A stretch of 64,000 bases of DNA. Origin: Ruditapes philippinarum. Lineage: Eukaryota. A program made the position numbers and the translations under genes. Every line of letters begins with the position of its first letter. Within the stretch, counting starts at the first letter, position 1. Positions 5,701 to 45,723 of the stretch are shown one piece after another. The stretch lies in the NCBI RefSeq assembly GCF_026571515.1, contig NW_026855141.1:62001-126000 (forward strand), given 5' to 3'. The notes under the pieces are model-generated. The model was not told where the DNA came from and did not search any database. It saw only the letters and a list, made by a program, of their open reading frames with translations.

Positions 5701-7526
5701 TCCCGGACAAAGCCCTCCCGTCAAAAAATGACAAGGCGGACAAAAGCCCTCCCGTGAAAATGACAGGGCGGACAAAAGCCCTCCCGTGAAAATAACAGGG
5801 CGGACAAAAGCCCTCCCATGAAAATGACTGGGCGGACAAAAGCCCTCCCGTGAAATTAACAAGGCGGACAAAAGCCCTCCCGTAACAAAAATAAATATGT
5901 ATATTGAATACCTGTGTTTTTTTCAATGCACTCAACATATTAGAATTGTTACATATATTTCTTGTTGTTTTCAATTGGCCTAAGTACCTTTTATTCTGAA
6001 TATACCTTCTTGAAATATTTAACGAGGTAACTTTTTACACAAACAAAAACACTTTTAAAAGTAATTGACTCATTACAAGGCACATTATAAATGTCTTTAA
6101 CTTTAAGTTAGATAATTTTAACTTCTTTTCATCATTTATTACTCTTAACTTCACATAGGAGTAATCCTTCATATTTACGTGAATAAATGTGCCCTTTTAG
6201 TTTTTAGCACTTATTATTCAGATGCCTCTCATGAATGTGCTCAAGCTCATACAAACACGCTTATGCCAATGAAAAACAAAAATATTCATGATTACAATTT
6301 TAATATGTTTAGAGCGTTGAAAAGAATATATAAATTATTCAACGTGCATATATGTATTTGCTGCGGGAAGGCTTTTGTCCGCCCTATTATTTTCACGTGA
6401 GGGTTTTTGTCCGCCAAGTCATTTTTACGGGAGGGCTTTTGTCCGCCCTGTCATTTTCACGGGAGGGCTTTTGTCCGCCTTGTCATTTTCACGGGAGGGC
6501 TTTTGTCAGCCTTGTCACTTTTTGACGGGAGGGCTTTTGTCCGGGAGGGCTTTTGTCCTACACTCATATATTTATGTATGTATTGACGTTTATGAGATAT
6601 ACTAATAATGTTGTTCAGTGTAAATATGTCATAAGCTAGGTAGGGTGGATAAGTAAGGTGGCTGATTTGGTACGCTTTTGTGCGTCGCGTTTCATTACTT
6701 TGATTTTTCACCTATGTACATCCGACTTTTCATCATCGTACCTTCAACATCACCATCGTTTTGACTTTTCACCGCCGTAATTTCGTTTTTTCGTTGTTTC
6801 AAGTTATGCGTGTGACGCGATGGTCCTAAAGGACACCATGCGTATGACACACGTAAAAATTTAAATATTTGTTTTTCAGGTCCCGAATCACTGACAGCTT
6901 ACTGTAGAAGTCTGTTGTCTGCGGGAAAATATGAATTCTTATGTCCGTACAAAGCGAAACCTGGAGATCCGTACTGCGATGCAAGTTGGGAATTGTTTAC
7001 AGTAACACGATTAGCGGTTCTTACAGCAGATGAAGTGAAAGAGTTTGAGAAAAAAATGGCGGAAAATTATCTCAGAAAAGCTGTAGGTATACAGAGTTGC
7101 CCTCTTTGTAAAGGTTTTTGCGAGCGCAAAAACAAATCCGACCAAAGAGTTCGGTGCTTGGTGTGTAAAACAGAAACAGGAGGCAGGTACGAGTTTTGCT
7201 GGTTCTGTTTGAAAACATGGTTGACCGGCGAGTTCAAAGATTGTGGGAATTTCGGATGCACTGGCGAAGATCCAAGACTAAGGGTGATAAAAAACTGCAA
7301 CAAGAAGAAGGTTGTAGAAGTGCTGTGCCCAGAAATACGTGCATGCCCCTCCTGTGGTCTACTTATCGAACACAAAGAGGCGTGTAAACAAATGGTCTGT
7401 AGATGTGGCCAGAAGTTCTGCTTTATTTGCTTAGAGAAAGCTGATGAAAATGGAAGATACCAATGTGGTGTGTATAATTCCAAATGCGAGCCAGCTCCTG
7501 TACAAACCAGCATCCCCGGATGTTAA
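2776..7526 (+). CDS. Ubiquitin-like domain + atypical RBR (half-RING1/IBR/RING2) E3 ubiquitin ligase, ~348 aa, 4 coding exons
   Basis: Exons 2776-2847, 4651-4735, 4847-5089, 6880-7526, all GT-AG with matching phases, 1047 nt in total. The N-terminus MPGKTFTLFVVSGENKNTTLEIDEDATIKELRKKV...RIHYAGKDL...TLKDFNLRNEATLFVVMRLPGG has a ubiquitin-fold pattern. The C-terminus carries IBR (CPLC...CLVC...FCWFC) and RING2 (CPSCGLLIEHKEACKQMVCRCGQKFCFIC) cysteine patterns. A probable non-coding first exon ends at 2559 (AG|GTACGT). Confidence 0.88.
2905..3840 (+). repeat. 29-30 bp intronic minisatellite (core AGTTTCGGTTTAA), two unit subtypes
   Basis: Units such as TTTAGTTTCGGTTTAACCTGGTTATATGCT up to ~3550, then GGCAGTTTCGGTTTAACCAGATTATATTT. 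Decayed units continue at ~4190-4600 beyond a SINE. Confidence 0.92.
3852..4178 (+). mobile_element. tRNA-derived SINE
   Basis: A-box-like TAGTTCAGTTGG and B-box-like GTTCGATCC head; the body is shared with the copy at 58312-58582; A-rich end. Confidence 0.75.
5682..6565. mobile_element. Non-autonomous Mutator/Foldback-like element with long TIRs built from 31-bp tandem units
   Basis: The left arm repeats GGCGGACAAAAGCCCTCCCGTGAAAATGACA and the right arm is its reverse complement. A 9-bp direct repeat ATATATTTA flanks both ends (5673-5681, 6566-6574). Confidence 0.82.
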
Positions 7527-8454: not shown

Positions 8455-10734
8455 CTATTCCAACATGGCGGCGATATTTTTTGCGGTATTTATGCTCATT
8501 GCTCTTCGAGCCTCCTCCGTGTTAGTTCCCATATGTGGTAAAATGACGCAATTCTTCAGCGTCATTAACGGATGATCTACAGGAAGTGGTTCCGGTTCCG
8601 TGACGTCAAGACCGGCTGCACCAATCAGATTGCTGGAAAGTGCGTCATACAAGTCAGTCTGGTTCACGACAGAACCACGCGAGGTATTTATAAGAACAGC
8701 ACTCTGTTTCATTTTCTCGAATGCGCTTTTATTGAATATTCCAATCGTTTGTGAAGTAACAGCACAGCATATGCACAAAATATCTGACTCTCGTAAGAGT
8801 TCGTCGAAAGGAACTCTTTCCGCGACCCCAGAAGCGTAAGTGGCTTCCATGACGTCAGTGTATATGATCCGAGATACTCCGAATGGTTTCATTCGTCTGG
8901 CAATTCCGAATCCAACACGGCCAAATCCGAAAATTCCGAGTGTTTTCCCCAAGGATACAGTACCTAGACACCACAATGGTTTCCATGGACCCGACTCTCC
9001 AGATTTGATGGCAAATAAACCTGAATAAATACAAACATTTATTAGAGTCAATGAAAGATTTTAAGTACATGTAATTCAGTACCGAAAATTCACTTTAATC
9101 TAATGTTCCGTAACAACCTGAATCAATTTCAAAGTCTCTTCGCTAAGCATTTCCTTTGCCTTGTCTATGATAGCAAGGCGATGGATTTATTGCAATCAAC
9201 CATTTATACAAAGCCATATGTCAGCTTTCATTCTTTAATTTGCAGCAACCCGTCTATATTATAAATATAAACATTACGATCGTCCAGTGAAAAACGACGT
9301 AACAAACGTGCAGTATTATAAGTTGGTTATATGAGGAATACAAGACTACTGTAGTCATTCAATTGAGCAAATTAACAAAGATCTGTTATTGTTTAATCCG
9401 ACAAATTTTTCTTTTCATTCTCTAAAAACGTTAAGAAAAGTAATTCTTGTCTAATACATTAAGATAAAAGATAAATGGACATTTATATTCATATAATACT
9501 CCATTATCAAGTCAGACACTCTTGTTCCTAACATTTACCTACATACCTTCTGCTAATCGCCGTGTTGTCATTAGCAACAAAGCAACACTCAGTTCGGCAG
9601 CGCTGTCGGAGGCGACATCCGGGGTTGTCGCAACAAACACCTGACGACGTTTGCACTCCAAAACATCGACGTGGTCATTGCCTACCGACATGGTTCCGAC
9701 AACTTTTAGACTCGTCCCTGTAAGATATGAATAAGGACAATGTTTATAAATTTTTAGTAAAGATAAACAGTTCTGAGTTAATAAGTGAACAAAGTGAAGT
9801 GTTCTCTCACATTCTTCAAGTAGATTAGTGCATATCATGATACCATTCAATGTTTTTTTCTCACTTATTTAGGAAGAGGCCCTAAGAATTGGACTCAGGG
9901 ACGAGTTATAGCTAATTAAATTACTAATCTGGGAAGTAAAATAATGCATGATTTTAAAATTTCCATAATTGTGAAGAGGTCTATACAGGTCTCTGGTATA
10001 TATGGTGAAATATCACTGCCATTTAGTCGTTTTATTTTCAAAATGAAACAGCAAGTACATGTATTTTTATTGTGTTTGCTAACCGGATGTTGCTAGAGGT
10101 ATATGTTTTATTTCCGGCACGAGCGGATATCCAAGTAAAACCATCGATCTTTTGCAAATTATCTGCGTAAAGATTCTCCTAATATAGAATACAGACCCTT
10201 CACTCTCGGTATTTGAACCCAGCCCAGTCAAGCTCGTGCACATGACCTTATCCATCCAACTGCAGATTCAAACTCCGCATATCCGATTCATAATTGAAAT
10301 TTGTACCACTTGAAACAATATTATTTAATTTAGAAAAAGAATATTAAATTATTGTAAATGTATGTTTTAAACTACAAGCGATTTATACACATCCGTGCAT
10401 TAAACACGGATGTATAAATAACAATATGTATAAATAACAATAACAAGCTATTTAGTGTACCGGAAAGATTACTATACATAAATAACATATACATGTAACT
10501 ATTAAATAAATTAGAAATTATGCAAAATATTGTACCTGCAGCATTCAATACCTCTTCGTTAATTTTGTCATTGATTGTACAAAACAAGCCGTTAACGCCT
10601 TTAACGCGTTCAAGTAACGTCTCACGCGGCACTACGTCATCACTATCCCAAACGTCAACGTCACATGTTTCTTTTAATATATCAATTCCTTCTTGAGGAA
10701 CCCTGCGAGTCACAAACACTTTAGGTTTCGCCAT
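8455..10734 (-). CDS. GRHPR: Glyoxylate/hydroxypyruvate reductase-like D-2-hydroxyacid dehydrogenase, paralog 1, ~311 aa
   Basis: Exons 10734-10536, 9717-9547, 9020-8455 (936 nt, GT-AG, phase 1/1). Motifs KVFVTRRVP, TMSVGNDH, GFGRVG, INTSRG, GLDVTEPEP, ILPHMGT. Confidence 0.93.
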
Positions 10735-11225
10735 TTCCTTATGTTCATATGAGAAACTTTCCTGCACAGAAGACTAGACACGCTGACATAAAATCAATAT
10801 CAATTCCAGCAAGGACAACAAATGTCAAGGTGAACAACTATTTCCGATTGATTGAATGAATAATAAAATTAAAATAGTTTTAAATAGAAGGAACATGAAG
10901 ATTATCACGCGCTGTGCTTATGTTATGTGCACACAAGTTTTCTTCCTTAATGTGTTCTTTTTTTAAATTATCGATCGAAGGAGGCTCGCGACAGGATTTA
11001 TAACAGAAATTAAAGGGAATGAACTAATACACTGCTTAAATATGCACTATAATGAAGTACTCTCCCTTTGATAAGAAAGTCTCGCGGACATGGTGACGTT
11101 CAGCGTCTTTTCGGAGAATCGTAACAAAACAATAATCCTTGATATTGAAATTGTATGTGTCATAGGGTGTGAACAATGCAGGTTCATTAATAAACAAATG
11201 AAGACGGAAAATTTATGAACTTTAA

Positions 11226-11551
11226 AGCAGCACGCCTCCAGATTTCATGAAAATTTGAAAATGTATTTAACAGTATGATATTGTGAACTAACGAAAAGAA
11301 TGCAATTTACACATTATCAATGGCACTTATTTCCCATACTATGAAGGTCAAAATTTGCAGAAATAGCCTTTACTGCGTTAGTAACGCGGTAGAAATAGAG
11401 TTATAAATACTGAAAAATCGGTCAATAATCGCACATAAGATGTAAATTATTACTAGGATTTTGAATTGTTATACTTATCCTTAAATCTTAGTACATTTGT
11501 CTCAGGTTTGATTTTATCGAAATAGTTTTGCTCATCTGGAGGCGTGAAGCT
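11226..11551. mobile_element. TTAA-flanked MITE (Kolobok/piggyBac-type target site)
   Basis: TTAA|AGCAGCACGCCTCCAGAT ... ATCTGGAGGCGTGAAGCT|TTAA terminal inverted repeats. Confidence 0.75.
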
Positions 11552-14500
11552 TTAAGGTGTTGAAGAAAAAAAGATGCACTGAACTTACTTAAAAGTCTTG
11601 CTTTATTTTACTCCAGGTATTCTCAATTTGGAAGACTATGTTGCCGTCTTGTGCCGGTGTTTCTAATAGCCTAAGAATTTACATAGCATCAAAATATTAT
11701 TCGATGTTACACAAGTTTTGTCACTGTTAAACTTTATTAACATATTAGACATGAATTAAAGTATATACTTTAAAGTGGCTGAATTGAAATTGATCTTTTT
11801 GTTGTACAAAATTGGATAAGTTGTACAATCATAATGATAAAATTATTTTGATTAATTCTGCATTCTTCCAAGTATCAAAATAGAAAATTAAGAAAGTTAA
11901 TTTGTTTTCAATAATTATCCACAAGCAATTGTTTTTGAATATTTAGAACCCTCTTAACATTTTCATAAAATTGTCCATCTTTCTAAAGGCTTGCTGCATT
12001 ATCGTATAAAAGAACATAATGATCAATATGAAATTTTATGTGTTTATGAACTTTTTTAATATCTTGTTTTAATGTAAATGTATATAAACGCAACTTATAT
12101 TTTTGCATACCATAACGTGCCGTGATTTAGCGCAAGAAACACATTGGCAGTAACAAAAGTTAACATAAGAACTCCAGGGCATATTTTGAGGTATCACAAG
12201 AACTCCGGGACATTTGAAAAATCGGGTATAAAGTTGTTAGCCGGGGCTTCATGCTTGCAATTTTGCATTATAATTAGGTAATTATGTATGGCAAGGATGA
12301 AGACTTGAAATAAACAGGTTGATACTTGCGAATTAGCAAATACATTTAATTTGGAAATTTTACTCAAAATTACCACATTTTACGCCAGAGGCGATGAAAA
12401 ATGGACTATGAATTAGTTTTTGACACATAATGCAATATGCAAGGCAAGCTTAATTTAGCAACTAAAACTCACTTCTTAAAGATGAAAAATACCATTTTTG
12501 ACGAGTGTTTTTGCAGTATATACAAAAGTTTTCCGACGAACTCCGTGACAGTTATCACAAGAACTCCTTGACAAGTTATCATAAGAACTCCATCCCTCGT
12601 GTAACACTTCCTCCCCCGTGAAGTGCGTGATTCAGGGCACTTTTATAGAGGATGCTTTATGCCAAATACTAGTATAGAGGCATAGTATTTATCCACAAAA
12701 AGATAAAATATGTTTTCCTATACCTTAGTCTAGTTAAAGCAAGTGACTCCCGGGACAGGGCCAATTTTTGAACTAACGGTCACGATTAATATAAATTTTG
12801 TAGAAATCTTAAGCTCTTGGCTTTGTAGTTTCACACTATCAGACTTAAATGTGTTTTTCGTTTTCCTATAAACAAATGACCTCAAGGAGGGTCAATTTTG
12901 ACCCTGTGGTATAATAACTATCAACAAGGTTATGTTGCAACTCTTGACATTGTAGTTTCACAAAATAAAATTGAAATGGGTTTCTCATACAGACTAAATC
13001 AACTAAATGCCCCAGGGACGGGGCCAACATTAACCAAAGGGGCATGAGTAATGCTAACAGACGGATGGATGGACGGACTGACGACCAGGTGTACAACATT
13101 ATACGCCGGATTTTTTTTCGGAACCCACAACAGAGCAATTAGAGCTGTCAACTAAAGGACTATTTTACAAGACTGTTTTCATGAGCAGGTTTTACTGTAA
13201 GCATTTGTCTTTTATATAGTACCAATTTAGAAAAAAAAGTATTATACTATAATGTCCATTCTTTGTTTTGAAAAGAAGAAAAATCTGCAGTAGTTTTATT
13301 CTTTTATTATAACAGTTTCATAATTATATTTAGATATTGTATATCCTGATTTTATATGTGTGAAATACAATGTCCTATGAAATACTAAAACAGAATTATA
13401 TACAATGTATGTTCAACAATATAATTTATGGAAATGCGATTATAACACATGTGAACATATCGATTACATGGAAGGACATAGCAAATTCACACGAGAACAT
13501 AACAAGTACACAAATTAACATAAAAAATTCACAGGTATAAAATATTCACCATTATTAAATTCTATATACATGTACATATAATTTCGAAATTACACATCCA
13601 TGTAAATTCATTAACAGTTATCAACAAAAAACAACAAAATTTCGAAACGTGAAATATAACAATGTTAACAATGAACATTCATATAAAATGCAAGATGAGA
13701 TCAGTTTTGAAGTTTAACGGGATATTGTTATATTTCAAGTGGCACCGACACTCTATGTGTCATAATTATGTCTGGTTTCCAGCTCAAGTGATAGACTGAG
13801 ACCTCGGGATTATTACTGGCACAACAAGGAACTGGACCGCTTCCTCACATAGAAGAATGAAGTTATGTGTAGTATTCGAACCTGAAGCGGTGAGGGACAG
13901 TCGAACTTGACCATTGAGGCCGACATGTAGGACAAAAAAGAAGTTACAATCAATTTTCAAAAAATGCTCATAATTTTCTCATTAATGTATACATACATGT
14001 ACATTGTACCTGTATATACTTTTCATGTATAATATCATACAGAGCCCTTTATGAAAATTAAAGGATTTTCAAAGACATGTTAAAAAAGTAATATACTTAT
14101 TTGCTAAATAAGCAATTTTTTTTGCTGAATAAGCAAAATTGTTGAAACAGGACATCCAGATATTATTCAGTAATTTCACAATGGGTTTACAGGTGATAAA
14201 GGTTAAAAGCACAGCTTTGGTAGCTATTTATATAATAACCTAGCTTGGACTAATATATAAAATGTCCATAATATTGTACATGTATACAGCTCAAACTGAG
14301 CTAGGTTTTAAATGAGTAAATGAAGGAGCAAAATTAATGATATGCACAGCACCAATCTAACCTATAAAATTAAAAGATGGCTTCAGAAAGTCAAGCCGAA
14401 ATTATGCTATTTTGGAAAGGTTTCATCAATTGAATATTTACAACTACTACGAGTATCACAACTGTTCGCGCCATTTCTAAAATTTGCGCCATTTCTCAAA

Positions 14501-14592: not shown

Positions 14593-17500
14593 TCAAATAT
14601 GTACGGGAATGCTCATTTTCGGAACCAGGGATTCTCCGGGGCTGCATATAACAGGTTCCTGCTTTTTCTTGCTGATTTCAATTTCTTGAAGTGCCGACAG
14701 GATAGAGGTGGCGAGCTCAGCAGAGCACTTCCGGCGCCCATCCCATTTATAACACTCTCTGAATGGCAGAAAATAACAGTTCTCAAGACTTGCGAGCGGA
14801 TGTCTATTAGGTATGACGTCATACTCTCTGACGTCCAATCCCACTGCTTCTAGTTCTCCGTCACGTAACGCATTATACATGTCCGTGAAGTTGGCAAGCA
14901 AGCCTTTTGTGACGTCGATTAATATTGCAGACGACTTCATTTTATGGAATGCCGCTTTGTTAAACAAGCACCCATTTTTGCCAGACGACAGTCCAAGATT
15001 TGAACACACAAAGATAATATCACTTGTTTCTAATAATATGTCTTTCTCTACAAAACTAGCGTCAATATCTGTTGCCATAGCAACTGATTTAATGTCATTG
15101 TAAATCAAGGCTGATACTCCCAGACTTTTGAGCATCTTGCCGACCGACAGTCCAAGAGGTCCCATGCCTATGATACCTACTGTCCTGTTGCTAAGTTCCA
15201 GACAATAGGTGGCGTCATTCTTTATGTTCTGAATAACATCTTTAGACTGTATAATCAGATTTAAGTTGCTATTAGAACCTGAAAATAAGCGTATATCTGT
15301 TTGATTAAGAGAGCTGTTATTAAATCATTCTAAATATAGTACATAATTCGTCACATAGCAAGGTATAAATTCGTATGTAACGTTGAAATGTTCTTTTTGA
15401 GTGATACTTTTTACATTTGCTATATTAAATATGCGGACATGTACTGCTTATCATGCAACATAATACATGTACATCTTAAAGAGACTCCACTGAGGTTTTT
15501 TCACATGACGGGAATGGTAACAATTTTTCGAGATTAATTTTCTATTGACAATTAACTTGTATGCAAAATTTCAGATAATTCACTTACTCCATTTCCCCCA
15601 GAATAATTATTTTGATTGTCAAAATCGGGCTAAGAATAGCTTTTCAATTCAGTTCTTAGCATATTTCTTAATTATCTTTTGCATAGGTACCCAAGTTGAT
15701 AATATTATAACAAATTCAAATTTAATGTTTTAGGCATTTGGAACTTATAACACTTTGTCCGGTTAAGAATTACCGCAATGGACGAAAAATGTTTCTTGAA
15801 TATAAAATGACATTTTTTGTTCATTTAAAAAAATGCTTAAAAATATATACTTTACTGTGATGACATGTATTGAGTAGTCTTTTAGTGGGTAGAAATTTGT
15901 TGACTTCAGAAATCATAATTTCAGCACGTGTTATGAGCACGTGTTATGAGCACGTGTTATGAGAGCACGTTTTATGTATCCATATTTTAGTTTTATTTCA
16001 CCACTTTCTCACCTGAAGTCCAGTCGGCTGTTATAACTCTCAATAAAGCTATTGCCATTTGAGCCACTGTGTCGAATGTGATCTTCGGAAGTGTCAGGAC
16101 CCTGATGTTACGTCGTGAACATTCGGATGTTTCTATGTGATCGGAATCCTCGGACATTGTCGCTACGATCTTCAAGGACGGACCTGTCAAAAGTACAGAT
16201 AACTACGTTTTAAACAATAACAAGTTAATTAATCACGTAAACGTAATGCAACAAGTTTTATTATTGGACTCTGTTCAGATGAATGACGTCTTTAACTATA
16301 TACACGGTCGTACCAAGGACATTCAGTAGGCAGAATTTATTAGTAAGGCTATAGTTTGATAATTATTAATTTTAAATAATGCATACACTATCAGTCACAT
16401 CGATCTACCAAAATTCAATTCATGATAATGATTTACGAATACATCAATTTAAATTGATCGAGTCACGACCTTTATCTACATTATAAGCAAATGGTCCTCT
16501 TAAAAAATCGGGGTCTTTAAAGGAGTTCAAGCCTTATATATGAAATGTTTTATATAGATCAAGAGAAACACTTGAAATGGAAAAAATTACAAGGATAATA
16601 AAGAAATATAAGTACATGTAAGTGCCCTTCTAAGCACAACGGGAGTGAAAAGCAACGCTTATGTTTTTTTGTTTGTTTTTATGTTGCACAATAAAATTGT
16701 TTATTCTAAGTGACGGAATGATCTGAAAATTAGATTCAGACATACATCAAATGGTACACAAATTTCGTTTCTTTTTCTGTATATTCTATAAACAATGGTT
16801 GTTTTTCACTGACATTTTGGCAATCACACGTATGACGATTTCTAGAGATACAAGAGTGCAATGTTCTACCCTCATCTCGAAAACAGGCCAGTTAATATCG
16901 TCCGTAATCAATGTTAATGCCAGCTAAACAGCTTCTTTGTCTGCTTAACTTTGAAATATAAAGGTATTATTTCTATATCTTCATACGTCATTCGTGAATA
17001 AGCAAATACCTGCGATCAGCTGATCAGACCCCGTTCACATACGTTAAGTACATTTGTTTTGTTTTGTTGTTGTTGTTTTTTTGCGGTGTACTATACTTGT
17101 TCAGTTATTAGGTTTAAAACTTAAATGCTTTCAAGTGTGAATTATAAGTAAGTTGTGGTTATATGTATACACTTTAAAGAGCTTTTATAGTCTGTAAGTG
17201 GATCATTGACATTCTTAATATACAATTTTGTACATATATGTATATATGGGGAGACTAATCGATTTTTATTTCAAAAGTAAACGGAACATTTTTTTTGAAC
17301 GACATATCAAATAATGTAAGAGTTTACTTATATATGTTCACATGAACGTGGCATTGACTTGCCTATAGATATTTGGCTAATTACCAGACAAAACATATGT
17401 TTTTAAAGTCACCCACGTTCCTTCCTAGTTCTTTCAATACCAGGTAACAAAGGCGTAAACAATGTTTAAACACGATTCATAAAGCGTGCTGTAATTCCTT

Positions 17501-19266
17501 TATTCCTATTTTTGATTTTTTTGGTCGACATTAAATAGTATTTTACATGGGTATTACAGCAATCGAACTTTTCGGACATTTCCGCCAATCTTCGGATAAT
17601 GGTTATGAATAACCGAGGAAATATTCCGATTGTTGTTCAATATGTAAGTCGAAAGAGGAAGCGATCTCGTTCTTCACAATGAACTTTATATCATTATGAA
17701 ATGATATTAAGGAAGTAACCTTTTTAATGTTGTACAGTCTTAATTCACAAAACATTACGTGTTCCAATTTTACTTTCGAATTTATTGTGAATTTATATCT
17801 ATTAGAGGAGAGAGTTATAACTTGAGAAATTCGTTACACCAGTTAATATGTATCATTTTTACGTAAATGGCTTACAATAGCCATATTTTATAAAGATTAT
17901 GTAGGGGGTTACGTAAAGTCTTTCGTGTCCCGGACCGATAGATCGGTAGGGCATCTTATTTTAATGTTGTTTTATGTCTGTCCTTTATGACACGAAAGTT
18001 CTTCCTCCTACAGCCCTTGAAGAACTGTACCCGCCAGATTCCATGAGAGGGTATGGCGCCACTGAGACAATGATTAAGATAACGACGAAAATAACAATAA
18101 TGATTTATATAGATGTGATAGAATTATATTATAAATATATTATAAACGGTCTTTTCAAGGACAGATTAAAAAAAACAAGCACGTGCGTGTAGTTTAATTG
18201 AACAAAAAATGGGAAATTTAGGAGATATAATTTATGGTAGCGTTAGTCGGTCTTTGTTAAAGATATTGACTTATCTTTGAAACACTTGTTTTAACGCCTG
18301 ATAGGTCTCCGCGGTTTATTTTAATACCGTTTCTTTGTTATTATCTATTTACAATTGTATTGTAAAGTATTTATGACGTGCGCTTATAATATCACGATAT
18401 ACCATGGTTTATGTATGAACTATAGCTTGACCTCTCGTGTTATTGCTTGACCTCTCGTGTATATGTAAGAAATGATGATGAAATATTTCATGTAACAAAC
18501 TAGAGTCTACGAAAGATAGAAATATATGAAATTTTCACATTTTTAAACATGCCCGGAAAAACAAAGTTGAATAAAAATGAGTAAGCTTGCACTTTAAATA
18601 ACGTTTAAATCAACAGATAAGCGAGTCTGAACAAATTTGTGATAAGATAACGTCGCGTCAAAACAGTGCACCGTCTGGCTTTTATATAACACACTGCCCT
18701 TTAAAACGTTATACTAACTGACCTCGCCTTACTGACAGCTTGAACTTACTTTCTTTCAATCTATCAGAATCAATCATAAACATCTTAAACTGAAAAGTCG
18801 GTCAGGTAAATCATGTAACTATGCAATTATCATAATATATTCAGTAGTTTTAATTTGATTCTCCTGTATGTAAGAATATACTTTGCCTATATAAAGTATA
18901 CAGAGTTCGGTCTGTATTTTATCGTAACTGCTAAATACATTATGTCCTACAAATGAACCAACCTTGGAAGAAGAATCATAAGGGTCGGTTTTTAGTCAGA
19001 CTGAAAATAAAACCACCAAAAAACTTAAATATCATCTCACCTGCTGCATTAAGAATATCCCGGTCGATTTTATCCGTCGGCATACATATGAGCACGTCAC
19101 AGCCTGGAATGTTGACGAGCAGTTCGGTTTTGGTGGCGGGGTCGTGGCTGTCCCAGTACGACACGTTACATCTTCCCAGTAACAGGTCCAATCCTTTCTG
19201 TGGTATTTGTCGGGTTATATAAACCTTCGGTCGGCACGATTTCGTCGTGGATATCACCGACAACAT
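14593..19266 (-). CDS. Divergent GRHPR-like paralog 2, ~360 aa, predicted catalytically inactive
   Basis: Exons 19266-19041, 16183-16013, 15278-14593 (1083 nt, open frame, same intron positions and 171-nt middle exon as its neighbours). Rossmann GMGPLG is kept; catalytic motifs are altered (IDVTKG, DVREYDVIP, FLPFREC). Confidence 0.88.
15480..15881. mobile_element. Degenerate TTAA-flanked MITE
   Basis: The left end TTAA|AGAGACTCCACTGAGGTTTT resembles ends at ~50936 and ~61320. The right end is imperfect and its boundary approximate. Confidence 0.45.
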
Positions 19267-26398: not shown

Positions 26399-28361
26399 AT
26401 ATCTTTGTTTTCAAGGAATATGCATGTACATATAAACCGTCATTTAAATAATAGAAATCATGTATAATATATAGATCTCGAGGATATTGACTGATTGTAG
26501 ATTCAGGACTGAATTTATTGAACGAGTTGAATAAAATATATTATGCCAGCCTCTGTCGAGATATTATTATTTTATTCAACGAGTACAATAAATTCAGTAA
26601 TAAACCTACACAAATATAATATTCTTTTTATTACATACCAAATATAAAGATTGTATGCATTAAAAAAAGAACCATTTCTCATTGACGCGCTTGTTGTTTA
26701 GCGCGACTTTAGTTTTTATTTTTTACATAACGCAACGACGTCACGTCAAAATATGTGCACGTCAGTGCAATACCATTTTTACGTAGTCACAAAAGCGATG
26801 CGTGTATGTGATAAACGACTATTAAACTTTTTTTCGGAAACTAAGGTAGAAAGAAAAACAGAAAGGAAAAAGAAAGCCGTGGTTGGCCTTAAATAATTAT
26901 GATTTTATTAGCCTACCTTTAGTGACTCAGTTAGCGAAAATTATGATTGTCGTAAAAAGCTAATAATACTTGAAACTTTTGAATATCTGCCAAATTTTGT
27001 GTCATAAATAATCTAATGTACGTAACCGAAATTTTATTTTAGGATTTTTTTTTGACACACGATATTTAAAAGGTTTAAACGAAAATATCCGGGTACATTA
27101 TTTTACCTTGACATTATGCAAATTTGATATTAACAATGGTAAAAGTATATCGGTTTTTTTTTCAGGAGAATAATTCGTTAAAATATTAAACAAGATAAAT
27201 GTCAGCTTTAAAAAGAGAGTTTGGTAACACTATTACTATATTGAATACGAATGATCACTTAAATATGATTTACATACATGTATATATTTGTACTACTTTT
27301 TACGAGAAAAAAACAAGTTTACGATATCAAGCACCTTTCAGATTTCGTTCATCACAGATTTTTTTCTGAATTTGAACTCAACTTACAAGTTCAGCTTAAA
27401 AAACAAACGATTATTTGATTTTTTTTTAAATTTTTTTTATCTAGATATGTTTTTACATCTTTATGTATTTCAACATAGATTTGGCCATAGCGTTCATTAT
27501 TTCACAAAAATGTAAAATAATATTTTGAATGTTTTTTGTTGTTGTCATTTTCATACATAACATGAATTATATTTTAAACGGTATATAATTTAATTAACAT
27601 AACAGTATAATTTCGGTTAATTTCGAGTATTTCAGGTTCCGTTGATCGCGCATTGCCTAATACTTCATTTTGTATACCCTGCTAAAACACAACATGGCGG
27701 CGTTTACTGATATTTTAGACAGTTTCCATCTGCGAAAGCGGCTCCATAATTGTTAAAATTATTTTTCTTATGGTGAAAATATTGTTTTTTTTTAATATAC
27801 ATGTATGTACATCTTTTAAAAAAAAACGCCAACTGTAACAGAACTGTGACAGATACACGGTAGTACATTACGTACTATAAATCTCGGTAGGTTCTCAAAG
27901 GTTGTCTCCCTTGATGATCCAACAGAATCAAAAACAACGGAAAACTTGACGTTACTTATTTGCAACTATGGCATTTAGCCACTATTTCTATATAGTGTCC
28001 TTGTCGTTCTACTTTTTTCTAGAGCTGTTAACGGTAAAATAGATGTAATGATCTATTGTAGAATAGCTTAATTCAAGAACTGCCGATTTCAGTAACATAT
28101 ATATTCAAGTAAATACCTTTTTTTTTTCTTCTTTATAATTTGTTAAAACTTAAAAGGTTACACAACGATATCGTAAGAAAAATACCTTCAGTCTATGTGA
28201 CAAAGTATCCCCATAATATTAGAATATGTATGTCCCCATTACTCTAAATCATATAACTATTTTCTTTTCTTAAAATAATGTAGTAGATCTACAGAGGCAT
28301 GGATTTTTTGTTTTCATTTAAAGAACTTTTTTTTTTCTCTTTCAACCTGGTCACGGTGGCA

Positions 28362-31300
28362 TTATAATTGGTAAACATCCCCGACTGCACTTTCACCATT
28401 GAATACCGCAATTATATTTTGGGCAACAGTTTCTGACATGCAATTCCGAGACTCCCACGTATTACTGCCCATATGCGGAAGAATAATGCAGTTTGAAACG
28501 GTAACTAGCTTGTGATCTGCCGGAAGTGGTTCCGGTTCTGTGACGTCAAGTCCCGCAGCGAATATTTCACCGGAAGTAAGCGCATCGTACAAATCATCAT
28601 GGTTGATAACGCCACCGCGCCCACTGTTAATAAGAACTGCAGACTTTTTCATTTTTTGGAAAGTTAATGTGTTAAACCTGTGTTTAGTTTGTGGCGTCAA
28701 ATTACAGCATATACAAATTATGTCGCTTTCTGTTATAAGATTCTCAAAGTCAACAAATTTTGCACCCACGTCATCAGCATATCCAACGCGAGAAACATCG
28801 TGGTATAGAATATTTTTTACCCCGAATGGCTTTAATCTTCTCGCCACCCCATACCCTATACGACCAAGCCCCAGTATGCCTACAGTCTTTTCTGACAGCT
28901 CTATACCGCACAACCACATAGGCTTCCATTTACCCCATTCACCATTCTTTACAGCAGCTACTCCTGAAATATCATGTTGAATGATTGCAATATTGAATAT
29001 TAATATTTTAATGTCTATGCATGTTTTTAATATGAAATATTTGATGTCACTCTTCGGGTTATGTGGTACATATTGCAGCGACATATATGTCGAAATGCAT
29101 CAAAAAGAACTTTATCTTTTTCTAATTTAACAATACCGAAAAATTTATCTGAATGATTTATAAAATGAAGAAACTAGCATCTATATACTTTAATCCTTTT
29201 GAACGAAAGTAATTCATTTACAAGTGAGGTGTATTTCATAGCACTAATTGTATAACAAACATTATTACAAAATAATGTATTAACTTATGCATTACATCAA
29301 TGGAAAATGCGGTGTGTTCAAGATGCTAGGACATACTCACTTCTCAGTGAGATATATTTGATATCAGTTCACACAAAACAATGAAGTATCCTATATATCA
29401 TATATCACTCACCTTCTAGAAGTCTTCTGGTTGTCAAGAGCAACAATGATATCGTCAATTCTGCCACACTGTCCGTGGAGACGTTCGGCGTGTTACACAC
29501 ACGGATTTTACGTTGCTTACATTCATTTACATCTATATGCTCAAAACCTACGGACATCGTGGCTACGACGGACAGTCCTGGACCTGCATTATTATATTTT
29601 ATGAAAAAATTAAAGCAAAAGCCCTGAATGAAATGTTATGAAACAGTTGCTAGCTCATTTCCGAACCTGTGACGGTTTTTTTTATTTGTTTGGGTCAATT
29701 TAAACGCTGGAAAGCATTGGTGGCACTATACAAAAACAAATTGGTTTAAAATGTCACAACCTTCACCTTTCTGACATTCTGAGATCCAAACAAATTCAGC
29801 GCCTTCTGTGCTTTGATTTACAAATGTTTCTGTAAAGTATTTTTCATTTTAACCGTTTGTACGGACTATGAGAATATTATATCATTTAACGTCATCTTAG
29901 TTTAAAAAATGGCCAAATCTGACGATATAACAACATGACTTATATACTGTAAAATTTGACAGACTTTTTTTAAAAAAAAGTAGATTTATCGGCCCAGATT
30001 ATATAACAATATATCCAAAGGTCGAACCAACAATTTATAAAAGCCGATACAAGATCTGGAATATGTACCATAATATGCGGCCCCGTTCCATGAGTCCTTA
30101 TATGAATATTATTTATCATAATTTATTTTCTTGCTATCAATTTGATTATTCGATGAAGTAATAGAGGGAAGATAATGAAATAATTTAAAATGTAACATAA
30201 TATTCAAGGTAGTTTGGCCTTTTACGATCAGTAGCTCATGCACAATACGAGCTACAATGTGTTTTTAGATGAAATACATTAAAGGCACATCATGCCGCAG
30301 AAACGATTTAAATTTTCCTTCTTTACAAATGGCAATAATAAGTTTTAAAACGTTTAATAGGAGCGATGGCCTAGTGGTTAAGGTGTCTGCCTCTCAACTT
30401 ATGAATCAAGGGTTCGAGCCCTTATCGGGTAACGACCATATGACAACAGTACTGGCCGCTTCCGGAAAGCGGACTCGAAAGTGATAAATATATTATAATT
30501 AAGTTGCAATTGAGCTTAACTAAATATGTTTAAACAACGTTTAATGGTTTTAGACAAGTTAGATGATTATTACCTGAAGAAGGTAGCGGTGATTGTGATA
30601 TTATTATAGTAGAAAAAGTAGCATTATAGTAGAAAAGAGCATTTTGATTTCCATACAAAATACCAAATTACTGCGACTGTACCTACTGCCAGAAATCAAC
30701 AGAAGCAAAAGATGGTTCAGGAAATTGGACAATGTGTACCTTTTATGAAATTGTAATAGGGCATCAACAATAAATTGCTCTTGAGAAATAAAAATAAAAG
30801 CATATTTAGAACAAGACGAGCCTTTTAAATGCTGAAATCTATGCCCTTAACTCGCCTCCAGGTTCAAGGTATATTCTATGTGATTTAAGAATGTATTTTG
30901 TGCAGATATAAATGTGTTGCCAAGCGTGTAAAATCTAATGCAATTAAAATGCAGATATTGTCAATAAAGGCAACATTTGCGTTTGTAAATAATGCGTAGA
31001 AATATCATTATAACATGCTTTTAAACACGGTAAACTCATATCAGGTATTATATACAAAACATCACTTCACCATCTATACTTTTCGTTGCTGTTGTTCTTC
31101 TTATTGTTGTTGTTGTTGTTTTTAAACAAACCATTAAGAATTATCACTTCTCTTTTTCGAGACTTAGCATACTGGTGGCAAAAATGATTCTTTACATGAT
31201 CATGGTTTGCATTGTTCGCTATTCAGTCTGTTATATACAAGTTTTTTTTAAAAGATTTCCCTAAAGTCGATGAATGGTTGTGTCCATAATTGAAAGATGG

Positions 31301-32155
31301 ACAAGTCCATTTACTTGGTGAGGGTCAAATGAAGATACGAGAACAGTGAAAACGGAAGTGTAATTAAATTGTTTCGAAGTATAAAAGTAAACAAAAACTG
31401 CCTCAAACTCGATTTAAAGTGAAAATATGATATATAAAGTATACACATAATCCTTGTATATTGTTTTGTTTGAATTACTGTATAATTTGATACTGCGTAT
31501 TAATTCTTACTTCTTATATACATGTCTTCAAGGGCGAATGATATTTATAATTGAGTAACGATAAATTTAGAATAATTATCACCACGTGTGGAAAGTCACA
31601 GGTGCCATTTTCAGTCAAATATATTAAACGTTATGGGCTTGAAGTTTATGGTGGTCTTTGCCAAGAAGTAAAAATATCTCAAAGCAGCGCTATATTCATA
31701 GGGTGGCCGCACGTGCCAAGAATGTGTCGCCAAATGACATCTGATTTTGGTTTCCCTCAACTATTTAACTTACAGGAAAACAACCATATTTCTATTACTA
31801 AAGAAAACAATTACACGTAGTTCTAGGAAATATATACAAAATAAACAAATCTTTTCTTAATAAGGTCATTAAGTAGCTATTAATCGTGTCAGGAATCTTT
31901 TACTACGAAAACATAAGTGAATGGAATTTGAAATAAAAAATAAAACAAACCTGCCGCATCGAGAACATCTTTGTCAATTATATCTGTCAACATACAAAAC
32001 AGAGCATCTACCCCGGCAATGTTTTTAATAAGTTCTTCACGTGGAATGGCCTCATCGCTCTCCCATATTTTGACATCATAATCCGAGAGCAGGTCGATCC
32101 CGGGCTGTGGAACCCGTCGTGTTATATAAATCTTTTTCTTTCCTTCCGATAGCAT
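28362..32155 (-). CDS. GRHPR: Glyoxylate/hydroxypyruvate reductase-like dehydrogenase, paralog 3, ~325 aa
   Basis: Exons 32155-31951, 29583-29413 (absent from the ORF track; GPGLSVVATMSVGFEHIDV...), 28963-28362; 978 nt. Motifs WKPMWLCG, GLGRIG, INSGRG, DVTEPEP, LPHMGS. Confidence 0.94.
30359..30535 (+). mobile_element. tRNA-derived SINE (second family)
   Basis: TGGCCTAGTGG A-box and GGTTCGAGCC B-box; a related degenerate copy lies at ~59565-59790. Confidence 0.6.
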
Positions 32156-36900: not shown

Positions 36901-39900
36901 AATGGCACCTGAGGTCCTTCTCGACCAATTAAGCTTGAAAGTCGCCAATAATATGACAATTCCTTATTTTCTGCACTTAAATAAACGTGATTGACACAGT
37001 TGTAGGCCCTTAATTGTTGCTCCTAATTAATACTTAGTAAGCACGTGAATGTTTCCTTGAATTGTTCATTCTATGTTGTTATAACACAATTGTTTTAGGC
37101 TGATGAGGCTACTGTTAGCGAGTACCACTCAAAATTATTTGGTGCTTACAGGTAAATATATTTATAAACTTTTACCCAGTCATACAAAACAAATAAAAAA
37201 AAATGAAGTTAAATAAGTCTGTAGGCTAGAATAGGGAAATACAATCTGATCATTCTTGTCTATGGTATAGTTTTTGTCCTTTACTGTTGTAACATGCCGA
37301 GCAATAGAAAGTTCTCTCTCCATTACGATCTATAATGTAACGGACCAATTCTTGGAATATATATCTCGTTAACTTGATAAGAATTTATTTCAACCATTAT
37401 TCATGAACGTGTTTGTTGAGCAACATATGGTGGCTGATTTCTGCCTAGTCCGTAGTAGGAGTTATAACGCTTATCCATTTTAACGCACACCTTTAACACA
37501 ACAACTGAGAAAAATATACGCACTTTAGGAATCTGGTCGAACTTTCATTTTGGAAAATATTTTATAACATCGAGTTATTGAAATCACTAGAAAATAAATT
37601 GAACACTTTACCATGATTTTTCAAAGTTAACATATGCAATGGAAACATTTGATCTGACGGTGATGGTGTACTGAATGATATGGTGTTGAAGATATTGAGT
37701 AAGCGTGATATTGCTCTGATTATATGGTGTCGAAAAGGCAGTATTATTGTTGCCTAAGATATATTTGACTGATTATATGGTGCAGGGAAAGGCAAATTGT
37801 ATTGTCGCCTTAGGTATATGTTAAGACTTTGGAAGACTTCTTCCAAGCATAGAAATAAAATATTTTAGATTGTCCATTTTTCCTTTTGCCAAATTAAGTA
37901 GAAAACTGCAAGCAGTCAAAATTCATATCGTATCATTTGTTTGTATTTTGAAGATTTATAGGTGACCTATACAATAAAGGCATCGTTATAGAAAATGTTA
38001 TTCACGACATGATTTTCAAGTTATTAAAATGGAAGGACCCAGTTTCGCTGCAATGTCTTTGTGTGATTTGGCCAATAGTAGGGGAAAAGTTGGATGTTAG
38101 TAAAGCAAAGGTGAGAGGAAATTTTCTTTTACATATATTGGACTTGATTTGTCCTCGTTTACATGTATTGAACTTCATTTGTCTTTGTTTACATATATTG
38201 GACTTGATTTGTCCTCATTTACATATATTGGACTTGATTTGTCCTCGTTTACATGAATTGGACTTGATTTGTCCTCGTTTACATGAATTGGACTTGATTT
38301 GTCCTCGTTTACATGAATTGGACTTGGTTTGTCCTCATTTACATATATTGGACTTGATTTGTCCTCGTTTACATGAATTGGACTTGATTTGTCCTCGTTT
38401 ACATATAATGGACTTGATTTGACCTCGTTTACTTCAAAATAGTACAATTAGAAAATTTTACCATGCAAATTGATACTGAAAGAGACGAAGTTTTTGATAC
38501 GAATATTATCTTCTACATATAAAAATGAAACGCAAAAGACCATAGGCCATTGAATATACTTAAAGGCATTAAAGCCTTAGAAATGAATATATTTTTTCTT
38601 CTTTAGAAAGAGCAGACATGTGTTTAAAACTATTTTGATAATAGAATTAGAAAAACAAGTTAGGTGCTCATCGCCTAGAAAAGAAGAGCTGAATATGAAA
38701 TTATTTGTCCTGAAAATAGCATGGTATTTTAACGTTTCGTCAACTAATTTAGTCCCGTGATGCAATGTGTTACCTTCCTTTACAAAAAAAAGAAACAAAA
38801 AAGAAACAAAACCAAAAAGCAAACAAACAAAATTGCCGCTTACTCTTCAATTCAACAGGAAATACTCAGAAAATGAGCTGATGTACGTAGTTTGCAAAGT
38901 ACAGGTAAGTCACGGACTAAATAGGAAATGAAAACTCGTGTCATTTTTGTCTGTTTGATCATTCACATAGTGTAACCAGTACCCCTATGATATTCAGCTT
39001 TTCCAATTTAATTGACGTTGAGTGATTTATTTCATTCTCTGCAGTTTCCACATGGGCAAACATAATTAATGTACTTTTGCCTGCATATTCTTTGTGCAAT
39101 ATATAATCTGCGGATTACTTTGTGATCACTGTCCATTTTTCCATGTTCCATGTAGCCTTCACCAGACTTGATCCTAGTTTAATTTTAATTTCCATGGCCA
39201 TGTGTAATTGACAATGTACCATACAATAAATATATATTCTAATAAAAATTTAACCAGCCAGCCTGCATATAAAACAAATAGTACTTGCATTCATCTTTTA
39301 AAACTTTTCACACGATCAAATGATTTTCCACTTTTCCTTTGTGTTTACTGTGTGATCCCAAAATATTTGTTAAATCCATTTGTGAATTCTTAAAATTGCA
39401 TGATTTGGTAACATTTGCCAAGTCTGAATGATTAATTCCATTGTTAAATCAATCACTGTATGACACTAATATTTGATATAGATAGTACAAATTATTTATA
39501 TAGATATTATACATGCCAGAATGATAAAGGAGGGAATATTTTAGCTATTTGGTCAATGGGTGACTGTTTGGAAACTGAATCAGAACAATTTAAGGTTTTG
39601 AAAACAAAAATCATATTCTGAGGCTGAATGGGTCTTTAATTAACTACTTTTGAGTTTGATATAGACCAGTTAAGCGTTCTGTTATAATTTATTCAAAAAT
39701 GTTTATTCAGGTGTTGTTATTTGTTTGGGTCGTCAGACCAAACAAATAATGGTAGCGAAATTTCAGAGTATAATGTTCTTAATTGCAAATGCCGAAAGTA
39801 GTCCACTTTTTTGAAGCGGTTACTTCCCTTTTGTATGTACACTAAAGCCGAAAAATTCAGGGGAGATCACTGCGTAAAGATGGTCAAAGACAGGCGCATC

Positions 39901-45267: not shown

Positions 45268-45723
45268 TAGGACAGTACAGTAAACACCGATAAACTGAAG
45301 AGAAAGGGAATAGTGGAGTACGATTTTATCATTTAAATAATTAACAATAAATTAAACGAATTGAGATTTAAAATTAGTGCAAGAAAATGCAATAAATTAA
45401 TTTAACCAGTTCATACAAAATACCAAGTTCGCAAAAAGAACAGATTTTGAACGAAATTCACGTGTAACGAATAGTTAAAAATGAACAAAATTATGTTCAA
45501 TCAGAAGAATTCATTGAAATGAAAACACCAACATTATATTAAACTTGAAATATTTCAACAGAGTGTAAACATAAGATTATATCAATTTAGCCATGCTTCA
45601 GAATAAAATGTCAACAGAACTTCCGCTATACCTATACACTTAAACGTGTTTACGTGGTAACGACAGATTAAAATCATTTATTCTCCATACTGTTTTTTGT
45701 CAAGATAACATTTCCTTGCTAAG

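Follow-up and report, generated by a model that had tools for sequence, protein, structure and literature searches.

The window analysed here, 64,000 nucleotides of Ruditapes philippinarum contig NW_026855141.1, carries three genes resembling glyoxylate reductase/hydroxypyruvate reductase (GRHPR), and the middle one, g2, raises the question of why a gene is maintained whose product is changed at every catalytic position kept by its neighbours, g1 and g3. The original prediction was that g2 encodes an intact pseudoenzyme, serving to regulate the flanking enzymes either as a sensor of NAD(H) or by heterodimer formation. The features of the three genes are as follows.

14593..19266, minus strand: g2, GRHPR-like gene without the catalytic triad, three coding exons, 360 aa (identical to protein P0001; spliced contigs)
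19041..19266, minus strand: g2 coding exon 1, residues 1-75
16184-19040, minus strand: g2 intron 1, GT-AG, phase 1; 2857 bases skipped in X1 and X6 contigs
16013..16183, minus strand: g2 coding exon 2, residues 76-132
15279-16012, minus strand: g2 intron 2, GT-AG, phase 1; 734 bases skipped in X1 and X6 contigs
14593..15278, minus strand: g2 coding exon 3, encoding residues 133-360 and the stop; it covers the Rossmann domain, the catalytic loops that are altered, and the helix and tail at the C-terminus
28362..32155, minus strand: g1, upstream paralog, Arg/Glu/His intact, 325 aa (exons 32155-31951, 29583-29413, 28963-28362)
8455..10734, minus strand: g3, downstream paralog, Arg/Glu/His intact, 311 aa (exons 10734-10536, 9717-9547, 9020-8455), spliced in X1 and X6

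The predicted extent of g2 proves exact, and its frame and splice sites are indeed intact: the sole stop is terminal, and both introns are GT-AG, at positions matching those in g1 and g3. The 1083 nt coding sequence (19266-19041, 16183-16013 and 15278-14593, minus strand) is single-copy in the clam genome, and its translation is identical to the R. philippinarum database protein P0001, named 'glyoxylate reductase/hydroxypyruvate reductase-like'. Exact skipping of both introns is observed in contigs assembled from RNA runs X1 and X6, in which transcripts of g2 and g3 are found together. Relative contig depths of g2 and g3 are left out of account, the runs having been chosen with g2, and no evidential weight is given to the content of g2 words, which is 0.83 in run X7 and next to none in X21 and X22 of the same study. 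The X6 contig extends to at least 19400, and five of the six listed coding differences between the RNA contigs and g2 are synonymous.

By fold, g2 is a member of the D-2-hydroxyacid dehydrogenase (2HADH) superfamily. Both Pfam domains score above their cut-offs (PF00389, 58.8 bits against 24.6; PF02826, 2-Hacid_dh_C, 98.2 bits against 25.1), the AlphaFold model has a pLDDT of 83 with the fold and helix A predicted to be intact, and the structure closest to this model is human GRHPR (2GCG/2H1S; Foldseek E 1e-26, VIA Z 26.6 over 285-292 residues). A search of the ESM Atlas returned only generic 2HADH clusters for g2. The catalytic and substrate-site positions, numbered for human GRHPR where they are compared with it, are altered as follows.

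14905..14907, minus strand: Lys257 at catalytic Arg245 (alignment to human GRHPR)
14818..14820, minus strand: Asp286 at catalytic Glu274, both flanking prolines gone (Tyr and Val flanks; alignment)
14755..14763, minus strand: Phe305 at catalytic His293 and Glu307 at Gly295 (alignment)
16146..16151, minus strand: Glu87-Asp88 replacing the Val-Gly substrate loop (alignment)

The altered motifs on which the prediction was based are all found in g2, and the alignment to human GRHPR that it proposed gives Arg245>Lys, Glu274>Asp, His293>Phe and Val83-Gly84>Glu-Asp, together with Asn242>Asp (Asp254). All three triad residues are changed, as had been claimed, but two of the changes are conservative (Lys for Arg, Asp for Glu); judged from the sequence, the decisive one is His>Phe305. 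According to PMC6303947, the Val/Gly pair, the Arg, Glu and His, and the Asn two residues before the Arg are each more than 90% conserved in 2HADH proteins, the Val-Gly backbone amides hold the substrate carboxylate, and an aromatic residue at the His site is incapable of proton exchange. In the 50 clusters of the g2 clade, which are not independent because heterodont clams make up much of the set and some clusters are near-duplicates, the His293 site is occupied by Tyr (22), Phe (18) or Gln (10) and never by His, while Arg is kept at the Arg245 site in five, the supporting Asn in four and Glu at the Glu274 site in six. The Gly84 site is Asp in 18 of the 25 rows that cover it, Gly never being among the five commonest residues, and the Gly295 site is Glu in 42/50 and Glu, Gln or Asp in 50/50. 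The His293, Arg245, Gly84 and Gly295 sites are invariant in all 52 rows of the two intact lineages. As Arg/Glu/His is kept by both neighbouring genes and by 166 of the 171 proteins with the His in the collected set, the loss of the triad in g2 is not a matter of chance. The His, the Arg with its Asn, the Glu of Pro-Glu-Pro and the Val/Gly pair that mark active GRHPR/GHRB enzymes are thus all missing, and from established 2HADH chemistry it is very likely that g2 would have no 2-hydroxyacid dehydrogenase activity. New residues common to the bivalve members in the cleft (Arg283 in 40/50, Glu307 in 42/50, Asp312 and Arg314 in 50/50) could alternatively mark a ligand site.

The cofactor site presents a less uniform picture.

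15151..15177, minus strand: Gly-rich dinucleotide motif Gly167-Gly175, glycines kept, Pro173 for Arg
15094..15096, minus strand: Asp194, NAD-type ribose-binding position (PMC6303947), kept in 48/50 clade clusters

The Rossmann motif was described as retained, which holds for its glycines but not for Pro173, where 52/52 intact paralogs have Arg. With that exception, clam g2 carries the whole of GxxGxGxxG, the ribose Asp and the pyridine-binding Asp-Val, the contact positions kept being Gly167/170/172/175, Asp194, Asp281 and Val282. Across the clade, Gly167 is found in 50/50, Gly170 in 48/50 and Gly175 in 47/50 clusters, but GxGxxG is complete in only 25/50, and GxG[RN]xG is present in 3/50 against 52/52 in the intact lineages. 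The middle Gly is replaced by Thr (9), Glu (4), Asn (4) or Asp (3), the first is Lys in Potamilus and the last is Ala in Mytilus; in 12/50 clusters Asp281 is replaced by Asn or Ala, and the loop after Asp194 is 25% identical in g2 against 53% and 50% in g1 and g3. None of the motif glycines is described as totally conserved even among active families (PMC6303947), and the last is reported to be essential in human GRHPR, where G165D is pathogenic (PMC9815608). Binding of NAD(H) or an adenosine nucleotide by g2 is possible on these residues.

Searching for orthologues across molluscs and comparing dN with dS, as proposed with the prediction, reveals both orthologues and purifying selection. Genes with the same changes are found in at least 13 named bivalve and gastropod genera. 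Among bivalves these non-triad proteins occur in heterodont clams, oysters, Mytilus and a freshwater mussel, and among gastropods in five genera; the named matches among the best 150 of 9151, many of which are unnamed, included none of the g2 type from cephalopods or from outside the molluscs. All 24 of the 24 non-triad rows form one clade (support 100/100), which persists after removal of 40 active-site and cofactor columns (SH-aLRT 94 and 99). Because the clade holds without the active-site columns, and because synteny agrees with it, long-branch attraction is unlikely to be its source. The three paralogs group in a clade of mollusc proteins (SH-aLRT 97), separate from the one that holds GRHPR proper of vertebrates, echinoderms, insects and molluscs. 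By locus tags, the two intact paralogs are again the neighbours of the g2 orthologue in a surf clam (Mactra, ACF0H5_019287/019288/019289) and two snails (Bradybaena, BsWGS_26896/26897-8/26899; Batillaria, BaRGS_00014662/3/4), and a linked pair is found in Potamilus (CHS0354_001194/5). These tags and the scaffold lengths suggest that a tandem triplication predating the divergence of bivalves and gastropods gave rise to g2, which has kept its place next to two intact paralogs since, an order that is compatible with a functional link and equally with the inertia of a tandem array.

Comparison of g2 with three of three orthologous loci gives dN of 0.33-0.40 with saturated synonymous sites (NG86 is undefined for 3/3 pairs, YN00 returns no value for 3/3 and LWL85 none for 1/3), and codon-position identity is 33-39% at third positions and 73-76% at second positions. 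Owing to this saturation, the omega values of 0.18-0.22 (LWL85) and 0.01-0.07 (maximum likelihood) are rough. Spliced expression, purifying selection and a single bivalve and gastropod clade bear out the prediction of an intact pseudoenzyme rather than a pseudogene; by kind, and as far as sequence can assign it, g2 is an enzyme fold without the essential catalytic residues, expressed and under purifying selection.

The distribution of this constraint along the protein was studied by comparing identity within g1, g3 and g2 across nine matched species.

16092..19230, minus strand: substrate-binding domain at the N-terminus (residues 13-106, interrupted by intron 1), conserved at the level of the intact paralogs
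14596..14685, minus strand: C-terminal extension, residues 331-360, specific to heterodonts; its end is of low confidence or disordered

For g1, g3 and g2 respectively, identity is 62, 59 and 57% in the N-terminal domain, 79, 62 and 25% in the dimer elements (residues 107-162) and 67, 64 and 37% in the Rossmann core (residues 163-262). Helix A and the Trp-bearing loop segments, which we take from GRHPR structures to be the dimer face, are strongly affected: helix A is 33% identical in g2 against 85 and 74% in g1 and g3, and the dimer loop 19% against 70 and 48%, a value partly lowered by indels. Hinge 1 is 28% identical against 93 and 80%. Arg128, present in 52/52 rows of the intact lineages, is Arg in 4/33 of the g2 clade, and Glu117 and Trp155 are gone from the dimer region. 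The difference between domains persists without the active-site columns (permutation p 5e-5; 4/248 circular shifts) and is present in all four classes of background conservation; tree lengths for g1, g3 and g2 are 3.45, 3.69 and 3.17 for the N-domain and 2.67, 3.56 and 5.37 for the NAD-domain. No gene conversion between g1 and g2 is detected, g2-to-g1 identity being 47% both within and between species, and this equality, with the domain tree analysis, rules it out as the origin of the N-domain similarity. Clade-specific surface residues of this domain are Arg12, Leu26, Leu30, Ser36 and Pro63. Many of its conserved residues are common to the intact enzymes, at a level equal to theirs and not higher; hence folding constraint accounts for part of the signal. 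The C-terminal extension, predicted at about 30 aa, has that length relative to the downstream gene but is shorter relative to the upstream gene; it occurs only in heterodont clams and is poorly conserved, which rules it out as a family-wide functional motif.

The reading preferred here, tentatively and at a little short of an even chance, is that g2 would be a dead GRHPR-fold protein that binds or scaffolds through its N-terminal domain, and not through the cofactor site or the usual dimer face. Having given up the catalytic His, the Arg and the Val-Gly substrate loop, such a protein would carry out no dehydrogenase catalysis. CtBP binds PxDLS peptides in its N-terminal cleft, and by analogy the constraint on the N-terminal region of g2, which we take to be the equivalent of that cleft, would reflect a protein partner. 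The cleft may be plugged from within by Glu87 and Asp88 of the former substrate loop, and also by Glu307 in the nicotinamide pocket, facing Lys257, Arg283 and Arg306.

The regulatory role originally predicted, by NAD(H) sensing or heterodimer formation, fares poorly as a function of the family, the dimer helix, dimer loop and Rossmann core being relaxed while the N-terminal domain is kept. Its two halves nevertheless deserve separate weighing. That g2 is an inactive subunit, pairing with g1 or g3 and tuning their activity, is unlikely while retaining an appreciable chance: it would fit the persistence of g2 beside intact paralogs in Mactra, Bradybaena, Batillaria and Potamilus, the occurrence of g2 and g3 transcripts in the same two RNA runs, the predicted integrity of the fold and helix A, and the dimeric state of 2HADH proteins, described as having a Trp of the partner subunit in the pocket (PMC6303947). 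A subunit binding a surface as conserved as that of g1 should, however, be constrained there too, and the canonical dimer elements, helix A and the dimer loop, are the least conserved part of g2, with Arg128 mostly replaced and Glu117 and Trp155 gone. It also seems improbable, though not negligibly so, that g2 senses NAD(H) or its adenosine half (AMP, ADP or ADP-ribose) and signals by a change of shape or oligomer in the manner of CtBP. The near-universal Asp194 and motif glycines, the complete set of these with Asp281-Val282 in the clam, and the Pfam score of 2-Hacid_dh_C favour such a sensor, but the full motif survives in only half of the clusters, Asp281 and the loop after Asp194 vary, the Gly295 site is always Glu, Gln or Asp, and the last motif Gly is lost in Mytilus.

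Neofunctionalisation to an enzyme whose acidic cleft was rebuilt, such as a His-independent reductase of cationic imines or one that is cofactor-free, is distinctly unlikely. A 2HADH-fold imino acid reductase would be a precedent for such an enzyme, and a literature search for one found nothing. The bivalve cleft set of Glu87, Asp88, Asp254, Lys257, Arg283, Glu284, Tyr/Phe305 and Glu307 would suit it, and active triad-substituted 2HADH enzymes are described (FDH, Glu>Gln; SERA IIIK, His>Lys), as is the His>Trp subfamily X4 of unknown function (PMC6303947). Yet the replacements differ between bivalves (Tyr/Phe and Arg-Glu) and gastropods (Gln and Cys-Asn), and Lys, Arg, Asn, Ser or Gln may stand at the Arg site, which leaves the clade without any shared catalytic residue; furthermore, the cofactor site erodes in several lineages and hinge 1 has diverged far beyond that of g1 and g3. 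Lastly, a young or decaying pseudogene, or an assembly artefact, is already refuted and has next to no probability left. The depth of 0-0.36 over g2 exon 3 in the raw-read RNA runs X23 and X24 (with about 4-5% of each run sampled) might suggest silence, but g3 is near background there too, and the combination of no expression and neutral evolution is contradicted by the open frame, exact splicing in the two other runs, orthologues with the same changes in so many genera, and saturated dS with dN below 0.41.

The binding or scaffold protein preferred above can be extended to a more speculative and rather doubtful proposal: that g2 is a molluscan CtBP/ANGUSTIFOLIA-like peptide-binding adaptor, derived independently, over 500 million years ago, from a dehydrogenase of metabolism. 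On this view, catalysis was given up along with the canonical dimer face and most of the cofactor site, while the cleft domain at the N-terminus would have remained under enzyme-level constraint. Still linked to two intact paralogs, one of them perhaps the NAD-dependent D-lactate dehydrogenase of molluscs, the adaptor would connect anaerobic end-product metabolism with a protein partner. Literature searches found no description of a non-triad mollusc GRHPR-like lineage. All named members of the clade are annotated as active 'glyoxylate reductase/hydroxypyruvate reductase' or as hypothetical; therefore, mollusc transcriptome studies will misread g2. It is a rare and old animal 2HADH pseudoenzyme whose two intact sister genes can serve as internal controls; the conservation split points to the half of the protein to be examined first, and its function is testable with three small soluble proteins.

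Among known systems, GRHPR (2HADH subfamily GHRB; human 2GCG) shares with g2 the fold, both Pfam domains and the database name, but in g2 the triad, Val-Gly, Asn242 and Gly295 are changed and the dimer loop is replaced. Subfamily X4 resembles g2 in having an aromatic residue at the catalytic His; it is archaeal, with His>Trp the sole change named in the account of it available in PMC6303947, whereas g2 is metazoan and has lost the whole catalytic set. Reuse of the 2HADH fold with an N-terminal cleft that binds protein is described for CtBP/BARS and the RIBEYE B domain (PMC9907507, PMC5536941). Of the two precedents cited with the prediction, ANGUSTIFOLIA is indeed without the triad, but CtBP keeps Arg-Glu-His (PMC9907507). 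CtBP combines these residues with NAD(H)-driven dimerisation, whereas g2 has no triad and relaxed cofactor and dimer elements. Nor does g2 belong to the CtBP family, as the triad is absent, it nests among GRHPR-like mollusc paralogs, and a g2-clade profile search scores CtBP at 90 bits, far below the 250 bits of GRHPR. Plant ANGUSTIFOLIA, whose role is described as non-enzymatic and cytoplasmic (PMC9907507), is like g2 in having the 2HADH fold without the catalytic residues. It is, however, a CtBP-like plant protein, whereas g2 goes back, by a separate origin, to a mollusc paralog of the GRHPR-like kind; a long conserved C-terminal domain is missing from this lineage, and its genes lie next to intact paralogs in an array that is itself conserved. 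Hence g2 adds, beside ANGUSTIFOLIA, an independent case of the 2HADH fold being kept after catalysis was lost.

The window carries three GRHPR-like genes, modelled by coordinates as follows:

32155-28362, minus strand: g1, the upstream intact paralogue, 325 aa
19266-14593, minus strand: g2, the middle paralogue, 360 aa
10734-8455, minus strand: g3, the downstream intact paralogue, 311 aa

Each has two phase-1 GT-AG introns at identical positions and a single terminal stop. The g2 translation, which is identical to P0001 (GRHPR-like protein of Ruditapes philippinarum in NCBI), shares 40.6% of its residues with g1 and 38.8% with g3, which are themselves 56.8% identical; every motif quoted in the original prediction was found where it had been placed. 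Exact skipping of both g2 introns is seen in contigs of two of the four RNA runs examined (X1 and X6). The raw reads of X23 and X24 contain hardly any g2 exon sequence, and g3 is near background there as well. Searching the large clam genome identified, as lower bounds, at least one g2-type gene and at least five other GRHPR-like genes, the latter all with the catalytic Arg/Glu/His triad. A second g1-lineage gene is found elsewhere in this genome (L001, G000:C15272:181000-190999; exon 3 73% identical to g1), and extra g1-type genes also occur in Mactra and Mercenaria. High-depth repeat elements lie between and inside the genes (11208-11608, 12010-12811 and 15218-15618), one of them, in g2 intron 2, having inverted joints to 15684 and 16738-16758.

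Alignment to human GRHPR bears out the predicted replacement of the catalytic motifs: Arg245, Glu274 and His293 correspond to Lys257, Asp286 and Phe305 in g2, and the carboxylate-binding Val83-Gly84 to Glu87-Asp88. Across the g2 clade, with each 90% cluster represented by a single row (31 clusters came from an exon 3 search and 19 are distant, omitting cluster members and fragments P0059 and P0095; the rows are rich in heterodont clams and not independent), the catalytic sites retain His in 0/50, Arg in 5/50, Glu in 6/50 and Asn in 4/50, while Gly295 is replaced in all 50. By contrast, His, Arg, Asn and both Gly are present in all 52 rows of the g1 and g3 lineages (26 each), and Glu in 51. The machinery conserved in D-2-hydroxyacid dehydrogenases (2HADH) consists of Val/Gly, Arg, Glu, His and a supporting Asn, the exceptions in the portion of the source consulted being single-site only (PMC6303947). 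As this machinery is replaced in the g2 clade, g2 has very likely lost 2-hydroxyacid dehydrogenase activity. The Mytilus g2-type proteins P0276-P0280 retain the catalytic Arg.

That g2 is a pseudogene can be excluded, in agreement with the original prediction of an intact gene rather than a young pseudogene. Relative to all three orthologous loci found (L005-L007, metagenome records), dN is 0.33-0.40 and dS is saturated, with 33-39% identity at third codon positions and 73-76% at second; furthermore, five of the six g2 coding differences in RNA contigs are synonymous, counted among 40 listed rows of a set with 382 more.

The ortholog search across molluscs recovered g2 members from both bivalves and gastropods. 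The 31 exon 3 clusters (49-100% identity) include Mercenaria, Mactra, Mya and Dreissena; a full HMMER scan and profile search added more distant members, namely Potamilus, five Mytilus species, Magallana, Saccostrea and Haliotis, and further gastropods (Lottia, Batillaria, Elysia and Bradybaena), named through cluster look-ups. A 49-row tree (323 columns, LG+C20+F+G4) unites the 24 non-triad rows, without exception, in a single clade (100/100), which divides into eight gastropod-type and 16 bivalve-type rows (those without names grouped by motif) and nests with the g1 and g3 lineages (100/99). In a second, 45-row tree this molluscan trio (SH-aLRT 97) is separate from GRHPR proper, whose clade contains vertebrate, echinoderm, nemertean, insect and mollusc proteins. 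Removing 40 columns at active-site and cofactor positions leaves the g2 clade in place when the N-domain (94) and the NAD-domain (99) are analysed separately. In heterobranch snails the old dimer loop is interrupted by a long insertion that is conserved among them, and certain gastropod members are extended at the N-terminus, where they share a short basic-serine motif; the proteins concerned are Bradybaena P0086 and P0311, Elysia P0112 and Batillaria P0308.

Outside the clam, gene order was read from locus names, each given a lineage according to its highest-scoring BLAST match, and from scaffold lengths rather than DNA. Mactra (ACF0H5_019287, 019288, 019289) and the land snail Bradybaena (BsWGS_26896, 26897-26898, 26899) share the order g3-g2-g1, the latter with two g2-type records side by side. 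The order is g1-g3-g2 in Batillaria (BaRGS_00014662-14664); in Potamilus it is g2-g3 (CHS0354_001194, 001195). Judged by equal scaffold lengths, g2 shares a chromosome with g1 or g3 in Mercenaria, Dreissena and Haliotis asinina; in Lottia, Mytilus coruscus and Saccostrea cucullata the shared scaffold is <2 Mb. Bivalves and gastropods diverged in the Cambrian.

Conservation was compared across nine species with all three genes (Saccostrea g3 taken from a sister species; Mercenaria and Potamilus g1 possibly co-orthologues). Mean pairwise identity in g1, g3 and g2 is 62, 59 and 57% over residues 13-106, and 76, 66 and 54% over residues 263-314. With active-site columns removed, g2 conservation falls by 0.02 over the 90 columns of the N-domain and by 0.24 over the other 158, a contrast (permutation p 5e-5; matched by 4/248 circular shifts) present in each of four background-conservation classes. 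Tree lengths for g1, g3 and g2 are 3.45, 3.69 and 3.17 in the N-domain, and 2.67, 3.56 and 5.37 in the NAD-domain. This implies that selection on g2 at present is mostly on the N-terminal domain, with relaxation in regions outside it.

The relaxed regions are those required by both mechanisms originally proposed, NAD(H) sensing and heterodimeric regulation of the flanking enzymes. The hinge, helix A and dimer loop (residues 107-162), needed for heterodimers, average 25% identity in g2 against 79% in g1 and 62% in g3, and a heterodimer regulator seems unlikely. A nucleotide sensor is similarly improbable: Asp194, Gly170 and Gly175 are each retained in 47-48 of the 50 clusters, and Ruditapes g2 keeps all motif glycines and Asp281-Val282, but the Rossmann core averages 37% (67% in g1, 64% in g3) and the dinucleotide motif is complete in just 25/50. 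Elsewhere its middle Gly is Thr, Glu, Asn or Asp, its first Gly is Lys in Potamilus and its last is Ala in Mytilus. Given the retained glycines and Asp194, g2 may still have a site for the adenosine half, or may bind NAD(H) in certain lineages. The cofactor-site glycines lost differ between Mytilus P0276-P0280 and Potamilus P0209; the pattern among lineages suggests a common His loss, then stepwise independent decay. That g2 is a rebuilt enzyme is less probable still. Ranked ahead of these readings, which are not fully exclusive, is a non-catalytic binding role, which would reside in the N-terminal domain and which we rate at close to even. The conserved strand 2 and helix 2 of g2 may form a surface equivalent to the one with which CtBP binds its partners. 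CtBP holds PxDLS partners in an N-terminal cleft (PMC9907507, PMC5536941, PMC10760060).

Three further frames lie on the forward strand. That at 6816-7523, adjoining g3, is stop-free over 236 aa and exceeds the Pfam cut-off for an IBR (half RING) domain; it probably represents one exon of a gene for an RBR-type E3 ligase. The exon at 37952-38419 has a weak MIF4G match (E 8.5e-5, under cut-off) and is likely part of an eIF4G-like gene. The third, 45709-46695, is a stop-free 329-aa frame on an A-rich strand, with no Pfam match over cut-off. As for the intact neighbours, an Octopus vulgaris protein groups with the g1 lineage, its record presumably deposited as D-lactate dehydrogenase. All 52 g1 and g3 rows have Asp at the ribose position, a mark of NADH preference in several 2HADH subfamilies (PMC6303947), and several molluscs have D-lactate dehydrogenase activity only (PMC2570690). 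Identifying the D-lactate dehydrogenase of molluscs with g1 or g3 is no more than a lead.

By fold g2 is a 2HADH, although it lacks four of the features that define an active enzyme, and its lineage, misannotated as GRHPR, is a real and old pseudoenzyme subfamily, apparently undescribed in the literature searched (subscription papers and bioRxiv supplements fell outside this scope). Plant ANGUSTIFOLIA, which like g2 is without catalytic residues, is the nearest kind, whereas CtBP, unlike either, retains them (PMC9907507).
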